32,000 bases of DNA from Henriciella sp. (GTDB lineage Bacteria > Pseudomonadota > Alphaproteobacteria > Caulobacterales > Hyphomonadaceae). The stretch's first letter is position 1, and each line of letters opens with the position of its first letter. The DNA is taken from the NCBI GenBank assembly GCA_030066975.1, contig JASJAO010000016.1, positions 1 through 32,000 on the forward strand, in the 5' to 3' direction. The position numbers and the translations under genes were made by a program. The notes under the pieces are model-generated. The model was not told where the DNA came from and ran no database searches. It was given only the letters and a program-made list of their open reading frames with translations. Shown one piece after another: positions 10,351 through 15,840 of the stretch.

Positions 10351-11052
10351 CTAAGCGGCGACGGCTTCTTTCTTGGGCTTGGGATCACGCAGAACATAGC
10401 CGCGGCCCCAGACGGTTTCGATGTGATGCTCGCCATTCGTGGCATTGGCCAGCTTCTTGCGCAGCTTACAGATAAACACGTCGATAATCTTCAGTTCCGG
10501 CTCATCCATCCCGCCATACAGGTGGTTGAGGAACATTTCCTTGGTCAGCGTCGTGCCCTTGCGTAGTGAGAGGAGCTCAAACATCTGATATTCTTTGCCG
10601 GTCAGGTGAACGCGCTCATCGTCAACCTCAACCGTCTTCGCATCGAGGTTCACGACAATGTCGCCAGTGCGGATGACGCTTTCCGCGTGGCCTTTGGAGC
10701 GGCGGACAATCGCGGTAATCCGGGCAATCAATTCGTCTTTGTTGAACGGCTTGGTCAAATAGTCGTCGGCGCCGTAACCAAGCGTCTTAACCTTGGCCTC
10801 GATGTCCGGATTGCCTGACAGGATCAGAACCGGTGTGTTCACCCGCGCCATGCGCAGCTGTTTCAACACGTCATAGCCGGAGATATCCGGCAGGGAGAGG
10901 TCGAGAATGATGATGTCATACTCATAGACTTTCCCGAGATCGACGCCTTCTTCGCCAAGGTCGGTCGTGTAGATATTGAAGCCCGCAGCTTTCAACATCA
11001 GTTCAATACTCCGGGCGACGGCGTTGTCGTCCTCAATCAGCAAAACTCTCAT
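10351..11052 (-). CDS. ctrA: Cell-cycle response regulator CtrA (OmpR family)
   Basis: MRVLLIEDD...IILDLSLPD receiver domain and a C-terminal winged helix ending [15 protein letters not shown], closely CtrA-like throughout. GGGGAG lies 6 nt upstream of the ATG at 11052. Confidence 0.93.
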
Positions 11053-11064
11053 TATCAACTCCCC

Positions 11065-11150
11065 GAATCAATCTAGGACGACATTAGCCGCATCGTTAAC
11101 CATTGTGAATCTAAGGCTGCATCCTTACCAAGGATTTAATATTCGGATTC
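11065..11150. promoter_or_regulatory. ctrA upstream region with three GANTC sites and a near-consensus CtrA box
   Basis: GAATC at 11065-11069, GAATC at 11107-11111, GATTC at 11146-11150. TTAC-N7-TTAA at 11125-11139, and a TTAAC half-site at 11096-11100. Confidence 0.4.
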
Positions 11151-11175
11151 GAAACGGTTTTTTTGTTCATACCTG

Positions 11176-12012
11176 TTAACAGTGGACTTCCTTACCGGTG
11201 CGCCCAAGCAGCGTGTGGGCAATGGCAATCGCGTCCATAATTGGCTGTGCAGACGGATCTGTAGAAATCAGTGTTTTCTGGCTGCGAATGGCTTCGCGCA
11301 CCGCATCATCACGCATCACAGTGCCGGCAAGATGCGGGCGGAAGCCCAGAAAAGTCTGGCAGGCGCGCGCAATCGCTTCATATGTGCGCTGACCCCCGGC
11401 CCGCGTTTCAGCCTGGTTGATCGCAACCACCTGCTCCACGTTCGGCGCGTAGCCTTTCAGCACTTTGATGAAAGCATAGGCGTCGGTCATCGACGTCGGT
11501 TCGTCGGTCACAATCATCACCACCTTATCGGCAGCGCGTGCGAGACGCATGCAATTGGCCTCGATACCAGCACCAAGGTCCAGAATGACCTGATCATATT
11601 GCAGGGCCAGGGCTGAGAGACCGGCCGCAAGTCTCGCGACTTCATCAGAGGACAGCTCTGCCAGCGCACCGGACCCGGACCGACCCGGCAGCACATCAAA
11701 GCCGCCTTGGCCAGAGCCGCCATCGACCGGCGTGACCGCATCTTCCAGCTCGACCCAGCCCGCAATCACAGCGGCAAGATCAGTTTCCGGCGCGATGCCG
11801 AGCTGAACATCGACATTTGCGAGGCCAAGATCGCCATCAACCAGCAATGTGCGCTTGCCGGCCTGAGCAAAAGCGCTGGCCAGTGTGATCGACATGAAAG
11901 TCTTACCGACACCACCCTTGCCGGATCCAACTGCGATAATCGAAGCTGGATCAACCCGGCGCGGCGGTTGCTGAGCAGGGCGTTCTTGGGATTTTGGAAG
12001 CAGGAAGCTCAT
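11176..12012 (-). CDS. flhG: MinD/ParA-family ATPase, FlhG (FleN/YlxH)-like
   Basis: Deviant Walker A GSGKGGVGKTF, LLVDGDLGLANV, Walker B VILDLGAG. Its start codon shares one nt with the flhF-like stop (TAATG). Confidence 0.8.
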   Translation of the reverse strand: MSFLLPKSQERPAQQPPRRVDPASIIAVGSGKGGVGKTFMSITLASAFAQAGKRTLLVDGDLGLANVDVQLGIAPETDLAAVIAGWVELEDAVTPVDGGSGQGGFDVLPGRSGSGALAELSSDEVARLAAGLSALALQYDQVILDLGAGIEANCMRLARAADKVVMIVTDEPTSMTDAYAFIKVLKGYAPNVEQVVAINQAETRAGGQRTYEAIARACQTFLGFRPHLAGTVMRDDAVREAIRSQKTLISTDPSAQPIMDAIAIAHTLLGRTGKEVHC

Positions 12013-13016
12013 TATGCGGCTCCTCTCAGGGCTACATGCGCGGGCGCGTCCTCGGTCAGGAGCTGCGCCAGGCGCGTTGGCGTGGCCGGGACAAGCCCGC
12101 CGCCAATGAAGGGGGTCACCGCCAGATGAGAGAAACTCACTTTTGCGGCTGAGAGCGCGGAGACGATGCCGCCTCTTCGTTTGGTCACGTCAAGCTTGGT
12201 GATGATCGCGCGTTTTACACCTGCGCGGGCAAACGCCCGGACTGCTTCGGCTTGATCCTCAGGGTGCCCTTCGGCACTGATCACCAGAACTGGCTCGGCT
12301 TTGATCACCGCGACCAGATCCTGCAGGCTCGCCATATCGTCCTGATCAAACGGAATGATTGCTGGCAGATCGATGACGCAGCGCTGATTGCCAGCCCGGA
12401 TCGTCTTTAACAGGGCAAACAGATCGTCCGGCGTCTTGGCGCTGCGGATCTGCCCTTGTTCCTGTTCCAGATAGGCCGCGAGCTGCGCCCCGCCTGCCGT
12501 GGAGTCGAGATCGGCGGCGACGGGCAGCACTTTGGCGTTCGCAACGGCGGCCCGGCGGGTGAGCTTGGCCGCTGTGGCCGTGCGGCCATGTCCGGGCGGG
12601 CCAACCAGAAGAATGTCACGCTCTGGCATGGCCTGGATCGGATCGCAGGTGATCATGCTTTGCAGACCGGCTGCGATCGCCGCGCTTGGCTCAGAACAAT
12701 CGAAACTATCGGAGACCCCGCTATCGGCGGTGCGATCAGCAAAGCGTTGCGGCGCGCCATGCCAGAGCAGGGCGTCGCGAACCCGGTTGCGGATCGGATT
12801 TTCCACCAGTCGCGGTGACGGCGAGGCCCCCAGGCGGGTCAGGATGCGCGATTCCGTCGGCACCATGCCGCCGCCAAGTTTGTCGGTCGCCGCCCGGACT
12901 TCCACACCGCCCGGCACATCACGCTCGGACAGGATGATGGCATCATCACCCATTTCGGCGAAAATCATCGCTTTTGCGGCCTCAAGGGACTCAGCAGCAA
13001 ATAATTTCATTCGCAT
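12012..13016 (-). CDS. flhF: FlhF-like SRP-type GTPase with degenerate G motifs
   Basis: FlhF-type N-terminus MKLFAAESLEAAKAMIFAEMGDDAIILSERDVPGGVEVRAA. The NG domain has GPPGHGRT in place of GxxGxGKT and DLPA in place of DTAG. TKLD is retained. Confidence 0.78.
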   Translation of the reverse strand: MRMKLFAAESLEAAKAMIFAEMGDDAIILSERDVPGGVEVRAATDKLGGGMVPTESRILTRLGASPSPRLVENPIRNRVRDALLWHGAPQRFADRTADSGVSDSFDCSEPSAAIAAGLQSMITCDPIQAMPERDILLVGPPGHGRTATAAKLTRRAAVANAKVLPVAADLDSTAGGAQLAAYLEQEQGQIRSAKTPDDLFALLKTIRAGNQRCVIDLPAIIPFDQDDMASLQDLVAVIKAEPVLVISAEGHPEDQAEAVRAFARAGVKRAIITKLDVTKRRGGIVSALSAAKVSFSHLAVTPFIGGGLVPATPTRLAQLLTEDAPAHVALRGAA

Positions 13017-13036
13017 ACAAGATCACTCCACTGTCT

Positions 13037-13103
13037 GATTCGGAGTTTCGAGGCGAAAGGTTAACAGAATCTGTCGATTTGTTAGTTTTTACATTACTGA
13101 TTC
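13037..13103. promoter_or_regulatory. flhF upstream region with three GANTC sites and a TTAAC half-site
   Basis: GATTC at 13037-13041, GAATC at 13067-13071, GATTC at 13099-13103, TTAAC at 13061-13065, all inside a 116-bp AT-richer intergenic gap. Confidence 0.35.
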
Positions 13104-13132
13104 ACATTCAGACAGGGTAAAGAGAGGGGCAT

Positions 13133-13393
13133 TTAGGCGGCCCTGCGGCCATCCACGATCTCGCTCAAAGTGACGCCCAACTGGCCATCTGCAATCACCA
13201 GACGGCCCCGTGCCATAAGGCGATCAGACACATAAATATCAACCAGATCAGAGGTTTGGCTTTCCAGCGCGAGAATGTCGCCTTCCGACATTTGCATCAG
13301 CTCATCCATCGGGATACGGGCCTCGCCGAGCACGACATCAATCCGCACCGGCACGTCCATTAAGGATTTCTCTAAAAATCTATTAACACTCAT
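13133..13393 (-). CDS. fliN: Flagellar motor switch protein FliN (SpoA domain only, 86 aa)
   Basis: VPVRIDVVLGEARIPMDELMQMSEGDILAL...RLMARGRLVIADGQLGVTLSEI matches the FliN/SpoA C-terminal domain. Confidence 0.85.
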   Translation of the reverse strand: MSVNRFLEKSLMDVPVRIDVVLGEARIPMDELMQMSEGDILALESQTSDLVDIYVSDRLMARGRLVIADGQLGVTLSEIVDGRRAA

Positions 13394-13429
13394 AACCGCT
13401 CAAATCGTATCGAACCTCGCCCCTTAAGG

Positions 13430-13819
13430 TCAATCGGAATGGTTGCCGAGAGGTGAATGAGGGGTGGAATTTGCAAATAATTCGCCTTGTCCGTCGATCA
13501 AAGTCGCCGCCAGACGCCGCACTTTGGAGAGGGCAATCGTCTTTTCCTCTGAACTCAAAGCCGCTGTTTCAAGCAGGGTCGCGAGCTCGACAATCGTGGC
13601 CAGTGCCTGTTTCAGATCTTCGCTGACCTGTTGCAGGCGTTCAGATTCCGCTGACAGCGTCTCATCCTGTAGAATACGAACCGCCCCGTCCCTTGTCTCA
13701 GCAAGCAGCGCGCGCAGCTCGGCCGCGCTCATCGAGACCAGATCCGGCACCTCCGGCTGAGGTGCAGAAAAGTCACTCTCGAACGGGAAAGGCTGTAGCT
13801 TTTTAATCTCGCGCTTCAT
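13430..13819 (-). CDS. Short FliH/FlbE-position flagellar assembly-like protein
   Basis: 129 aa. N-terminal FPFESDF motif followed by a predicted coiled coil. It occupies the slot between fliG and fliN and has a 4-nt start/stop overlap with fliG. The family call is tentative. Confidence 0.45.
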   Translation of the reverse strand: MKREIKKLQPFPFESDFSAPQPEVPDLVSMSAAELRALLAETRDGAVRILQDETLSAESERLQQVSEDLKQALATIVELATLLETAALSSEEKTIALSKVRRLAATLIDGQGELFANSTPHSPLGNHSD

Positions 13820-14739
13820 TCTACAAGTTCCTCATCGTCGGGATGAATCAGGATGTCGCCGCGTTTAACCAGGGTGCGGGCATGTCCGGTCAGCTCGGCT
13901 CTTGCCGCCTCAATGTCGGCGCGCCGGACCGGCCCCAGCATCTCAATCTCACTCTTCATCAGGTCTCTGGCGCGCTGGGTCATATTATTAAGGAAGGCAT
14001 TCGCGGTCTCCTCACGTGCGCCTTTCAAGGCAAGCGCCAGAACCGAGCGGTCAATGCTGGCCAGAATGGTCTGCAGGCTGGCGGGGTCGAGATGGGCAAT
14101 ATCATCAAAGGTGAACATCAGCGCGCGAATGCGCTCGCCAAGACCGGGCTCTGCGCCATCCAAGGCCGCGAGCAAACCCTGCTCAACCCGTGTCTCAAGA
14201 TTATCGAAGATGCGGGCAATCCGTTCTGTTCCGGCGGCTGGCGATGCCGGCGCGGCGGTCAGGGCCTTTTCGACCGTGGTTTCGATCGCCTGCAGGGCAC
14301 GGGGATGGACCGGGCCAAGATGCAAGAGATGGCGCAAGGCCGGCGTCGCAATCTCACTTGGCAGGTCGCGCACCAGCTCCGCAGCCGTCTTTTCCGGCAG
14401 CTTGGACAAGATCACCGCGATCACGGCGGGCCGCTCCTCTGCCAGGAAACGCGCGGTCACCGCTGTATCCTGGCGCGCGAGCCTCTGCCAAACCGATGGG
14501 GCCTGCCCCATTGCATCGCGTGGCGTCTCAGCCACATCGCGCAAATAGGCCTGGGCGGCCTTCACTTCGCTGACGGGATTATCGTCCAGCGTCTCCATCG
14601 CCTGCGTGAGGTGACGCGCTTCGGAAGGCGACAGCGCAGACCAGACCGCATTCGCTTTCGCGCCGAGCGCGCGCATCAGCGCGGCGCTGCGCAACACGCC
14701 ATCTGGCGCGCCGGATGAGACTTTGGCGGGCAGGGTCAT
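13816..14739 (-). CDS. fliG: Flagellar motor switch protein FliG
   Basis: EERPAVIAVILSKLP (EHPQ-type motif) and C-terminal MFTFDDI...ALKGAREE...MTQRARDLM...LGPVRRADIEAA...LVKRGDILI. The E. coli K264, R281 and R297 equivalents are conserved. Confidence 0.88.
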   Translation of the reverse strand: MTLPAKVSSGAPDGVLRSAALMRALGAKANAVWSALSPSEARHLTQAMETLDDNPVSEVKAAQAYLRDVAETPRDAMGQAPSVWQRLARQDTAVTARFLAEERPAVIAVILSKLPEKTAAELVRDLPSEIATPALRHLLHLGPVHPRALQAIETTVEKALTAAPASPAAGTERIARIFDNLETRVEQGLLAALDGAEPGLGERIRALMFTFDDIAHLDPASLQTILASIDRSVLALALKGAREETANAFLNNMTQRARDLMKSEIEMLGPVRRADIEAARAELTGHARTLVKRGDILIHPDDEELVE

Positions 14740-15380
14740 GAGGCTGCTCCTGGTGTCTCAGACATCCAGGTGCGCAGCAGGCGAACCGTCCCATCAGGAT
14801 TGGCCTCGGCCAGCGCTCCGGCGCGCTCAATTGCGGTGTCTTGAGACAGACCCGGCGGCGCGGCGTCCGGCGCCGCACGGGGCGAAGTGGTCTGTGCGGG
14901 CAGGACCTGCACGGCTCCCGCAGAGCTACGCTCGGCGCCGCGCAGCGACAGTCCCCCAAGGATCAGAACAATCAGTCCGAGCCCTGTCAGTTCCAACGCG
15001 CCCTGATAAGGCACTTGCGATCTTGCGCTGGTTGCGAACTCGAATTCTGACACGGTCAGCGTGTCGGTGCCGGGACGAAATCCGGTACTGGCGGCAAGAA
15101 TTGTTTCGATCCGTTCGATCCTGGCGCTGTCCGGCGCGCCATTGATCAGAACCAGCCAGCTCTTCTCTGGCCCGCCATGCACGGCGACTTTGACCTGTCC
15201 GGGCCCGGTCACGGTTTCCAGCAGCGCGGTCACCTCGCGCTCCTGCTGGCTACCGACCGGCGCTGTCGCCGGGGCGGGCTGCAAAACATCAAACAGGCGC
15301 AGAGAAAAGACCCCCGCCGCCACAAGCAGGGCGACGAGGGTCAAGTTACGCGTGATGGGCGTTCTGGCTGTTGCGGACAT
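14736..15380 (-). CDS. Mini FliF-like ring protein (two TM helices, one RBM3-like core, FliG-binding tail)
   Basis: The ATG at 15380 has GAGAGG 8 nt upstream; a GTG at 15389 is an alternative start. TM1 is LTLVALLVAAGVFSL. The periplasmic segment is VTALLETVTGPGQVKVAV...WLVLINGAPDSARIERIETILAASTGFRPGTDTLTVSEFEF. TM2 is LTGLGLIVLILGGLSL. The tail ends VRLLRTWMSE. 4-nt overlap with fliG. Confidence 0.6.
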   Translation of the reverse strand: MSATARTPITRNLTLVALLVAAGVFSLRLFDVLQPAPATAPVGSQQEREVTALLETVTGPGQVKVAVHGGPEKSWLVLINGAPDSARIERIETILAASTGFRPGTDTLTVSEFEFATSARSQVPYQGALELTGLGLIVLILGGLSLRGAERSSAGAVQVLPAQTTSPRAAPDAAPPGLSQDTAIERAGALAEANPDGTVRLLRTWMSETPGAAS

Positions 15381-15445
15381 TTGCGACACCTCTCGCCCAT
15401 AGATTCTGCGGACCCAAGCTCCGCTTTGTTCTAAGGGCGACGTCG

Positions 15446-15461
15446 TAAACGCCGCTTTAAC
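15446..15461. promoter_or_regulatory. Near-consensus CtrA box upstream of the fliF-like gene
   Basis: TAAA-CGCCGCT-TTAAC, one mismatch to TTAA-N7-TTAAC, 66-81 nt upstream of the ATG. A GATTC site lies at 15402-15406. Confidence 0.35.
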
Positions 15462-15481
15462 GATAAAGGGCTGGTGTCAGC

Positions 15482-15748
15482 CTAGCGGTATTGCTGGATG
15501 CGGGTCGTGCGCAGGCCTTTGCGACCGTGCTTGTTGTACAGCGCGCGCCAGCCTTCAAATTCTTCTTCACTGAGATCGTAGCGCTCGCACGCCTCGTCTT
15601 CGGTCAGCAGACCACCATTCACCGCAGCGACAACTTCTGCCTTGCGGCGCGTCACCCAGCGCGTAATGCCGGGCTTGGGGAGATCCGCGAGTGTGAGTGA
15701 GCGCCCGTCGGGGCCTTTAACACTCATCAAGTGTGCATTCTGAGCCAT
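15482..15748 (-). CDS. sciP: SciP-like small CtrA-inhibitory transcription factor (DUF1153-type HTH)
   Basis: 88 aa: LTLADLPKPGITRWVTRRKAEVVAAVNGGLLTEDEACERYDLSEEEFEGW...RTTRIQQYR. This matches my memory of SciP/DUF1153 proteins and sits next to a fliF-type operon, as in Caulobacter. Confidence 0.78.
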   Translation of the reverse strand: MAQNAHLMSVKGPDGRSLTLADLPKPGITRWVTRRKAEVVAAVNGGLLTEDEACERYDLSEEEFEGWRALYNKHGRKGLRTTRIQQYR

Positions 15749-15825: not shown

Positions 15826-15840
15826 TTAAGGGCGGTTTCA
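15826..15840. promoter_or_regulatory. Near-consensus CtrA box upstream of sciP
   Basis: TTAA-GGGCGGT-TTCA, 78-92 nt upstream of the sciP ATG. Confidence 0.3.

Follow-up and report, generated by a model that had tools for sequence, protein, structure and literature searches.

A 32,000-nucleotide stretch of Henriciella sp. DNA (positions 1 to 32,000 of contig JASJAO010000016.1, assembly GCA_030066975.1; hereafter the window) carries on its reverse strand a gene for a 214-residue membrane protein that we call mini-FliF. Profile comparisons resolve this protein into the two halves of the third ring-building motif (RBM3) core of FliF, the flagellar MS-ring protein, joined by a four-residue turn and followed by a FliF-type C-terminal tail. 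FliF is usually seen as a near-invariant protein with three ring-building motifs, in which RBM1 and RBM2 hold the export gate while RBM3 together with the beta-collar forms the S ring. Mini-FliF appears to be a paralog within this family that fails several of the defining features of FliF, it heads an operon of miniaturised rotor genes, and it looks undescribed. The reading we favor, and consider probable, is that the operon encodes a paralogous rotor module, a reduced scaffold resembling the MS and C rings that would have no export gate.

Homology of mini-FliF to FliF

Neither Pfam nor NCBIfam returned a match for the mini-FliF sequence, and a word-indexed homolog search found only 5-6 relatives, with or without a profile. 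An exhaustive profile search recovered 255 proteins at E <= 1e-3. The members of the top ~130 clusters are all 200-235 amino acids (aa) long and align end to end, and full-length FliFs of 506-557 aa appear from E ~1e-8, with query residues 73-214 placed over FliF positions ~360-530; a Pfam scan identifies these longer matches as YscJ_FliF plus YscJ_FliF_C proteins. A family profile was built from 111 members. Compared with all PDB sequences it found Salmonella FliF at E 1.3e-6, aligning profile positions 82-218 with Salmonella residues 396-559 and, in a second short segment, positions 43-70 with Salmonella residues 240-267 (…RIEAILSPIVGNGNVHAQVT). Weak YscJ_FliF_C matches occur in 25 of the 111 family members. 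The first-pass annotation of this DNA had set a match to a FliF-family profile beforehand as a test of its proposal, and such a match was found, though Pfam and NCBIfam are silent: hhalign of the whole mini-FliF family with ten canonical FliFs gave a probability of 98.7% and E 2.9e-16.

The same comparison made piece by piece indicates which parts of FliF survive. Residues 34-82 alone match FliF RBM3a (hhalign probability 93.5%, E 2e-7), the specific match to this half being at residues 44-68, and the RBM2-equivalent segment of FliF scored a probability of 0.5% with the same residues. The remainder of the periplasmic domain matches RBM3b (96.3%), and the last 40 residues alone match the last 33 positions of canonical FliF, which include the RxWM motif (96.3%, E 2e-9). 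The first transmembrane (TM) helix, TM1, showed no sequence homology to FliF detectable by hhalign. The PF01514 region, comprising RBM1 and RBM2, is absent, and only ~11 residues separate TM1 from the RBM3a helix. The beta-collar is absent as well: RBM3a extends to about residue 69 and is followed by RBM3b from about residue 74, whereas canonical FliF has ~90-110 residues between them. An alignment made by eye in the first pass had placed the two RBM3 halves in the periplasmic part, with the collar deleted and RBM1 and RBM2 missing, and had likened the tail to the FliG-binding helix at the FliF C-terminus; it was right in each of these respects. The helices that bind FliG_N are present at the sequence level, and the binding itself is predicted.

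The layout proposed in the first pass, with TM1, a periplasmic part, a second TM helix (TM2) and a cytoplasmic tail in this order, is borne out by Kyte-Doolittle analysis, which finds hydrophobic segments at residues 9-34 and 126-149, and by an AlphaFold model made with a 6-sequence alignment, in which the TM helices span residues 8-33 and 125-151. Flanking basic residues and homology suggest that these two helices flank the periplasmic region and that both termini are cytoplasmic, with a very short N-terminus ahead of TM1 and a periplasmic part of approximately residues 34-125. In the model the periplasmic domain consists of a helix (45-58), two strands (63-69 and 73-79), a second helix (85-99) and a third strand (106-112) at pLDDT 82-91, and the modeled alpha-beta-beta-alpha-beta order is that of the ring-building motif. 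The C-terminal part is predicted to be disordered from 148 to 179 and to end in helices 181-193 and 195-207.

The cluster was found in 12 GTDB genomes (mostly Henriciella metagenome-assembled genomes, with 3 chromosome-scale contigs), in Hyphomonas sp. Mor2 (CP017718.1) and in a JGI genome; sequences that carry it include the complete Henriciella chromosomes OZ255705.1 and OZ244132.1 as well as JBKAGY010000001.1. The operon is conserved in at least 15 genomes of Hyphomonadaceae, and 15 loci (L001-L015) were compared. In all 15 the mini-FliF frame is intact, with a length of 212-219 aa across loci. The distance from the sciP stop codon to the mini-FliF ATG is ~100-130 bp in every locus and holds a conserved promoter-like element, and at the other end the mini-FliF stop and the FliG' start share 4 nt. 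The first pass had allowed that a sequencing error might separate the open reading frame from additional FliF-coding sequence; no further part of FliF is concealed between sciP and mini-FliF. A GTG codon upstream offers an alternative start (frame end at 15389, 217 aa), but the homologs begin with MSAT(A/D)RTP, and the start is therefore taken as the ATG. The resulting sequence is identical to the NCBI entry 'hypothetical protein QNI84_15815 [Henriciella sp.]'.

Mini-FliF is a real, working gene under purifying selection. The ratio of nonsynonymous to synonymous substitution rates (dN/dS) in close pairs is 0.06-0.16 for mini-FliF, 0.03-0.08 for FliG', 0.015-0.06 for the small protein of the 129-aa type and 0.005-0.014 for FliN'. 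Conservation within mini-FliF peaks at TM1, both RBM3 halves, TM2 and the tail, and G59, F115, P195, R203 and W205 are kept in at least 90% of the 111 family members. These observations bear on the idea that the operon is a functionless, decaying remnant of an ancestral fliF operon, which we regard as very improbable. All four products are shorter than their Caulobacteraceae counterparts, and no gene of the cluster evolves faster than mini-FliF, whose homologs are 34-44% identical to the window (56% in the closest locus, L001) as against 97% for ctrA. Decay is, however, difficult to reconcile with the dN/dS values of mini-FliF and the still lower ones of its partners, with an intact frame of constant length in the 15 loci and in ~130 sequence clusters, with a tail motif and a promoter element that are invariant or nearly so, and with transcription of the genes in Hyphomonas neptunium.

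The operon and its surroundings

Twelve of the 15 loci show the order sciP, mini-FliF, FliG' (303-309 aa), a protein of 116-129 aa and FliN'; the contigs of the remaining three (L004, L006 and L008) are short and cover the module in part (coordinates in the window are given in Table 1). In gene order, and in the shared gene boundaries, the core of four genes follows Phenylobacterium fliF (547 aa), fliG (341 aa), flbE (215 aa) and fliN (110 aa). A homolog search with FliG' returned, among the 120 matches listed, FliG' orthologs of 289-320 aa throughout and no canonical FliG. The N-terminus of the small protein, MKR…L.P(F/Y)PF.SDFS.P, is aromatic and invariant and leads into long helices, and comparison of the 129-aa protein with Pfam and the PDB found no relative. 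From its gene position and this N-terminal motif one might guess that it is FliH- or FlbE-like and binds FliN'. A 12-residue C-terminal extension of the small protein occurs in the window and in L001.

Table 1. Mini-FliF, its parts, its upstream elements and its neighbors in the window (residue numbers are those of mini-FliF)
Feature	Positions	Strand	Description
mini-FliF	14736-15380	-	214 aa; TM1, RBM3 core, TM2, linker, FliG-binding-type tail
TM1	15282-15347	-	residues ~12-33; equivalent to FliF TM1 by position only
RBM3a equivalent	15174-15248	-	residues 45-69; helix 1 and strand 1, …TALLETVTGPGQVKVAV…
Hairpin GGPE	15162-15173	-	residues 70-73; four residues at the canonical beta-collar site (~90-110 residues in FliF)
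RBM3b equivalent	15033-15161	-	residues 74-116; strand 2, helix 2 and strand 3, …SWLVLING…RIETILAASTGF…DTLTVSEFEF
TM2	14934-15005	-	residues 126-149
Cytoplasmic linker	14841-14933	-	residues 150-180; Pro/Ala-rich, poorly conserved, predicted disordered
C-terminal tail	14760-14840	-	residues 181-207; two helices, …LAEANPDGTVRLLRTWM; homologous to the FliG_N-binding FliF C-terminus
CtrA-box-like element	15446-15460	-	TTAAAGCGGCGTTTA (TTAA-N7-TTTA), 66-80 nt upstream of the mini-FliF ATG
Stem-loop	15469-15482	-	weak, 5 pairs, starting from the sciP stop codon
FliG'	13816-14739	-	307 aa; FliG_N (short, weak), FliG_M, FliG_C
129-aa protein	13430-13819	-	at the flbE position
FliN'	13133-13393	-	86 aa; FliMN_C/SpoA domain only
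sciP	15482-15748	-	CtrA inhibitor; conserved upstream neighbor
flhF-like	12012-13016	-	GTPase of the signal recognition particle type, 334 aa; module membership uncertain
flhG/motR-like	11176-12012	-	MinD-family ATPase, 278 aa; module membership uncertain
ctrA	10351-11058	-	response regulator, 97% identical across loci; neighbor outside the module

The spacer between sciP and mini-FliF combines a short invariant block with sequence that diverges between loci. The block GTTAAAGCG(C/G)CGTTTACGACG around TTAA-N7-TTTA is the same in all 15 loci, and TTAA-N7-TTTA is one mismatch from the CtrA box TTAA-N7-TTAA. The window contains 4 such near-boxes where 1.85 are expected, which is not above chance, and therefore only the cross-genome invariance of this one site counts as evidence. 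The weak stem-loop that starts at the sciP stop codon has counterparts, inverted repeats at the equivalent place in other loci ahead of the invariant block, and is probably the sciP terminator; in that case the mini-FliF operon would be transcribed from a promoter of its own. The sequence conservation of the invariant block suggests that it is probably this promoter, and that it is CtrA-dependent. In the supplements of Leicht et al. (2020, PMC7200025) a CtrA chromatin immunoprecipitation (ChIP) peak of H. neptunium is attributed to sciP (HNE_1390), and the direct CtrA regulon file of the same study (S7 Data) does not list HNE_1391-1393.

Further one-mismatch sites lie at 13372-13386 (5' end of fliN'), 15826-15840 (upstream of sciP) and 11125-11139 (upstream of ctrA). 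A second conserved inverted repeat, GCCCGCATCTGCG.CGGGC, follows the promoter-like block and precedes the ribosome-binding site in most of L002-L015 (for example at ~7970-7990 in L003), and a diverged version of it is found in the window (15395-15425) and in L001.

Beyond the genes of Table 1 no other flagellar gene was found in the scanned parts of the window (to ~19 kb), which hold the housekeeping genes rplM, rpsI, argC, ctaA and gltX, and the mini-FliF cluster contains no export-gate gene. The genes flhF, flhG (motR) and ctrA form a tightly conserved trio with 81-99% identity to the window. In several genomes unrelated inserted genes part this trio from fliN' (L014 11882-13033; L015 11656-13892), and in H. 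neptunium it lies (HNE_0942-0944) ~460 kb from HNE_1390-1393. Since the trio is separable in relatives and distant in H. neptunium, we treat it as a neighbor of uncertain membership. H. neptunium has a CtrA ChIP peak upstream of its FlhF homolog.

A gradient of divergence runs along the gene row 10351-15748 when the window is compared with the other loci, the identities being given without the closest locus, L001. Identity is 97% for ctrA, 88-91% for flhG, 81-83% for flhF and 81-84% for sciP, and it is 73-80% for fliN', 50-55% for fliG', 43-49% for the small protein and 34-44% for mini-FliF.

Proposed assembly and alternatives

The relation of mini-FliF to the flagellum can be approached through H. 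neptunium, where Leicht et al. (2020, PMC7200025) list a flagellar cluster of fliL (HNE_0241), fliF (HNE_0242), a hypothetical gene, fliN (HNE_0244), fliP and fliG (HNE_0246). In the supplements of that study HNE_0242 extends over at least 160 ten-bp bins, which makes it no shorter than 1.6 kb, and it shares 32% identity with CC_0905 across 70% of its length (PMC7200025). A separate set in the same genome consists of sciP (HNE_1390), a hypothetical gene (HNE_1391), a 'putative FliG' (HNE_1392) and another hypothetical gene (HNE_1393); HNE_1391-1393 are transcribed, and they are ~1.5-2-fold up in a divJ deletion at weak p-values of 0.10-0.23 (PMC7200025). The swarmer cells of H. neptunium are flagellated, and its motor has been imaged by cryo-electron tomography according to the citation of Chen et al. 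(2011). Because this organism has a separate full-length FliF and FliG, flagellated swarmers and an imaged motor, the mini-FliF set is most likely a paralogous one that coexists with a normal flagellum, and most likely not the flagellar MS ring.

The assembly that we propose would begin with the RBM3 core, which, by analogy with the RBM domains of FliF, SctJ/SctD and SpoIIIAG, may oligomerize into a small ring in the inner membrane. The tail would then co-fold with the N-domain of the translationally coupled FliG' and so recruit it, and FliG' would in turn arrange FliN' and the small FlbE-position protein in a reduced structure resembling the C ring. A ring that lacks RBM1, RBM2 and the collar could neither surround a type III export gate nor support a rod, and the resulting device would be a rotor or scaffold that has no axle. 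It would operate alongside a normal flagellum with its own full-length FliF and FliG. Since the operon would have a promoter of its own, in which the CtrA-box-like element next to sciP is invariant, its expression probably starts together with the class II flagellar and cell-cycle programme, and its candidate roles in the cell include a polar scaffold, a checkpoint and a stator-interacting device. The first-pass suggestion that mini-FliF could dock FliG yet not house an export gate is reasonable on the sequence evidence and fits the coupling to a FliG paralog, the lack of a gate gene in the cluster and the presence of a full-length FliF elsewhere in H. neptunium.

The properties of FliG' lend themselves to a different use of the same parts. 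A survey of 106 FliG' sequences covered the positions that we take to correspond to the residues with which E. coli FliG contacts the stator (Lloyd & Blair; Zhou et al.), mapped via an alignment with T. maritima. The equivalents of K264, R281, D288, D289 and R297 are K (105 sequences), R (all 106), E or D (80, with S in the others), E or D (106) and R (106), so these charges are essentially invariant apart from the D288 position. The MFxF motif is invariant, and the EHPQR motif for FliM binding reads E-S-P-Q…R. Together with the very strong conservation of FliN' and with a CtrA-box-like promoter element that parallels those of class II flagellar genes, these features would suit an accessory or alternative part of the real flagellar motor, with FliG' held by mini-FliF in or beside the basal body, such as a second rotor species, a ring for docking or 'parking' stators or a condition-specific C-ring variant, comparable to the extra FliG paralogs found elsewhere. 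We consider this possible but clearly less probable than a paralogous scaffold. A subunit without the collar and without RBM1 and RBM2 cannot replace FliF in the continuous collar of the 34-subunit MS ring, and the cluster adjoins other flagellar genes in none of the loci. Moreover, FliG' of the window has diverged at the FliM-binding motif, its residues 101-105 and 137 reading ERPA…H where 103-105 of the 106 sequences have ESPQ…R and the canonical motif is EHPQ…R; the closest relatives resemble the window, and a FliM-type contact kept by the other members of the FliG' family may have been lost here.

Several points weigh against the scaffold reading. A ring-building motif does not guarantee a ring, and in FliF the collar supplies much of the RBM3 ring contacts. 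The residue conservation just described would suit a part of a functioning motor no less than a simple scaffold, in that the stator contacts and most of the FliM contacts are kept. An AlphaFold model of the tail fused to FliG' 1-105, made with an alignment of FliG' only, is of low confidence (mean pLDDT 63, with 44-63 over five models) and gave no structural match. The whole mini-FliF model, searched with Foldseek against the PDB, found nothing at E <= 1e-3. In this search, a check proposed in the first pass, chains with RBM folds are among the weak matches, namely PrgK domain 2 (root-mean-square deviation 3.1 Å, 75 columns), EscJ and 82-85-residue chains of the flagellar MS-ring entry 8wkq (3.0 Å over 70), and none is significant, while unrelated two-layer folds (the KH domain of ribosomal S3 and the C-terminal domains of CzrB and MamM) rank beside them. 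Finally, the evidence for a full-length FliF comes from the related H. neptunium and not from the genome of this metagenome-assembled Henriciella itself, and we infer that HNE_1391 is mini-FliF from synteny only.

The fold evidence is compatible with an RBM and not decisive, and the case for FliF homology therefore rests on sequence profiles and gene context. The mixed Foldseek matches and the silence of Pfam and NCBIfam are what would be expected if mini-FliF were unrelated to FliF and owed its likeness to chance, being a bitopic membrane protein of a generic sort whose two-layer alpha/beta domain is a common one. This we judge the least credible of the alternatives, since RBM3a, RBM3b and the tail are three independent segments that match the right places in FliF in the right order, and since the gene occupies the fliF position directly upstream of a FliG gene that it overlaps.

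That position, beside sciP and in an operon collinear with the fliF operon of Caulobacteraceae, would also suit a protein that is the only FliF of the organism, forming a minimal MS ring for which the functions of RBM1 and RBM2 are supplied by another protein or dispensed with. The reliance on H. neptunium for a canonical FliF leaves some room for such an arrangement. It is nevertheless improbable, because H. neptunium combines the same sciP-hypothetical-FliG-hypothetical layout with the separate full-length FliF and FliG of its flagellar cluster and with the motor reported as imaged, and because no export-gate gene lies near mini-FliF.

Within the scaffold reading a more specific and decidedly speculative extension, which we think unlikely but not fanciful, is that of a rotor without an axle: a small, self-contained mini-FliF ring in the inner membrane carrying a FliG'/FliN' ring that would still engage stators of the MotAB type, in keeping with the conserved stator-contact charges of the FliG' family. 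Such a device might serve these stalked budding bacteria not for propulsion but as a sensor timed by the cell cycle, as a checkpoint or as a polarity hub wired to CtrA and SciP.

Related systems and significance

Canonical FliF (Salmonella, PDB 6scn/7cg7; PF01514 and PF08345) shares with mini-FliF an N-in, C-in topology with two TM helices, the RBM3 core halves, a two-helix tail with …P..xA.xxRxWM and a gene directly upstream of fliG that overlaps it. Mini-FliF differs in its length of 214 aa (~520-560 aa in canonical FliF), in the lack of RBM1 and RBM2, in the replacement of the collar by a four-residue turn and in a TM1 with no detectable homology; it also fails the FliF models of Pfam and NCBIfam, and a related genome contains a full-length FliF in addition to it. 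At the level of the operon the closest likeness is to the class II operon fliF-fliG-flbE-fliN of Caulobacteraceae, which has the same order, the same overlapping junctions and the same linkage to sciP. In Caulobacter sciP (CC_0903) and fliF (CC_0905) are two genes apart (PMC7200025), and fliF is a CtrA-dependent early gene (PMC3930126). The mini operon differs from that of Caulobacteraceae in the size of every product (214 vs 547, 307 vs 341, 117-129 vs 215 and 86 vs 110 aa) and in having no flbD after it, and Hyphomonas has its working fliF, fliN and fliG in another cluster.

Reduced forms of FliF occur elsewhere. The short FliF of Chlamydiaceae (~330 aa) has an RBM2-like domain and a further RBM and is fused to a FliG domain (Bergeron 2016, PMC4768692). 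It resembles mini-FliF in being reduced, with two TM helices and fewer RBMs, and in occurring outside a complete set of flagellar genes, and it is the closest described case. The two differ in the domains that survive, mini-FliF retaining only the RBM3 core and being encoded beside a separate FliG' that it would bind, and the lineages are unrelated. The ring proteins SctJ/PrgK, SctD, SpoIIIAG and SpoIIIAH are, like mini-FliF, membrane-anchored and built from alpha-beta-beta-alpha-beta ring-building motifs, but they have no FliG-binding tail, and sequence profiles gave no link of mini-FliF to them, the link being to FliF RBM3 specifically. An intermediate architecture is represented by three complete FliF-like metagenomic proteins recovered in the exhaustive search, P0130 (290 aa), P0132 (338 aa) and P0139 (317 aa; 7 cluster members). 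These share with mini-FliF the TM1, RBM3, TM2 and …R(G/S)W(L/I) tail and the lack of a PF01514 region; unlike mini-FliF they keep a shortened collar and pass the PF08345 threshold. Since they too are without the PF01514 region, the loss of RBM1 and RBM2 happened more than once.

An additional FliG beside the motor FliG has a precedent in Borrelia (FliG1 and FliG2). We know of no second FliG paralog elsewhere that pairs with a dedicated miniature FliF, a FliN and a protein at the FlbE position, and a literature search found no paper on a short FliF/FliG paralog in Hyphomonadaceae or on HNE_1391-1393. An E-ring protein (FlgY, MotE or FlbB) was considered, since the product might have formed a ring around the MS ring, and ruled out, mini-FliF having no FlgY or MgtE_N match; the E ring consists of FlgY homologs that form spokes around the MS ring (PMC13023049).

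Because its members are annotated as 'hypothetical protein' and are invisible to Pfam and NCBIfam, the mini-FliF family needs a model of its own. Mini-FliF amounts to a natural deletion of all of FliF but the RBM3 core and the FliG-docking tail, kept under purifying selection across a bacterial family, and would make it possible to ask whether the RBM3 core alone sets the ring and its stoichiometry, and whether FliG and FliN can form a ring where there is no secretion system. That an entire class II operon has been miniaturized and has persisted next to a functional flagellum is relevant to the way in which parts of the flagellum were recruited into other machines, and the module in Hyphomonadaceae offers a view of what the parts of a flagellar rotor do once they are freed from the flagellum.

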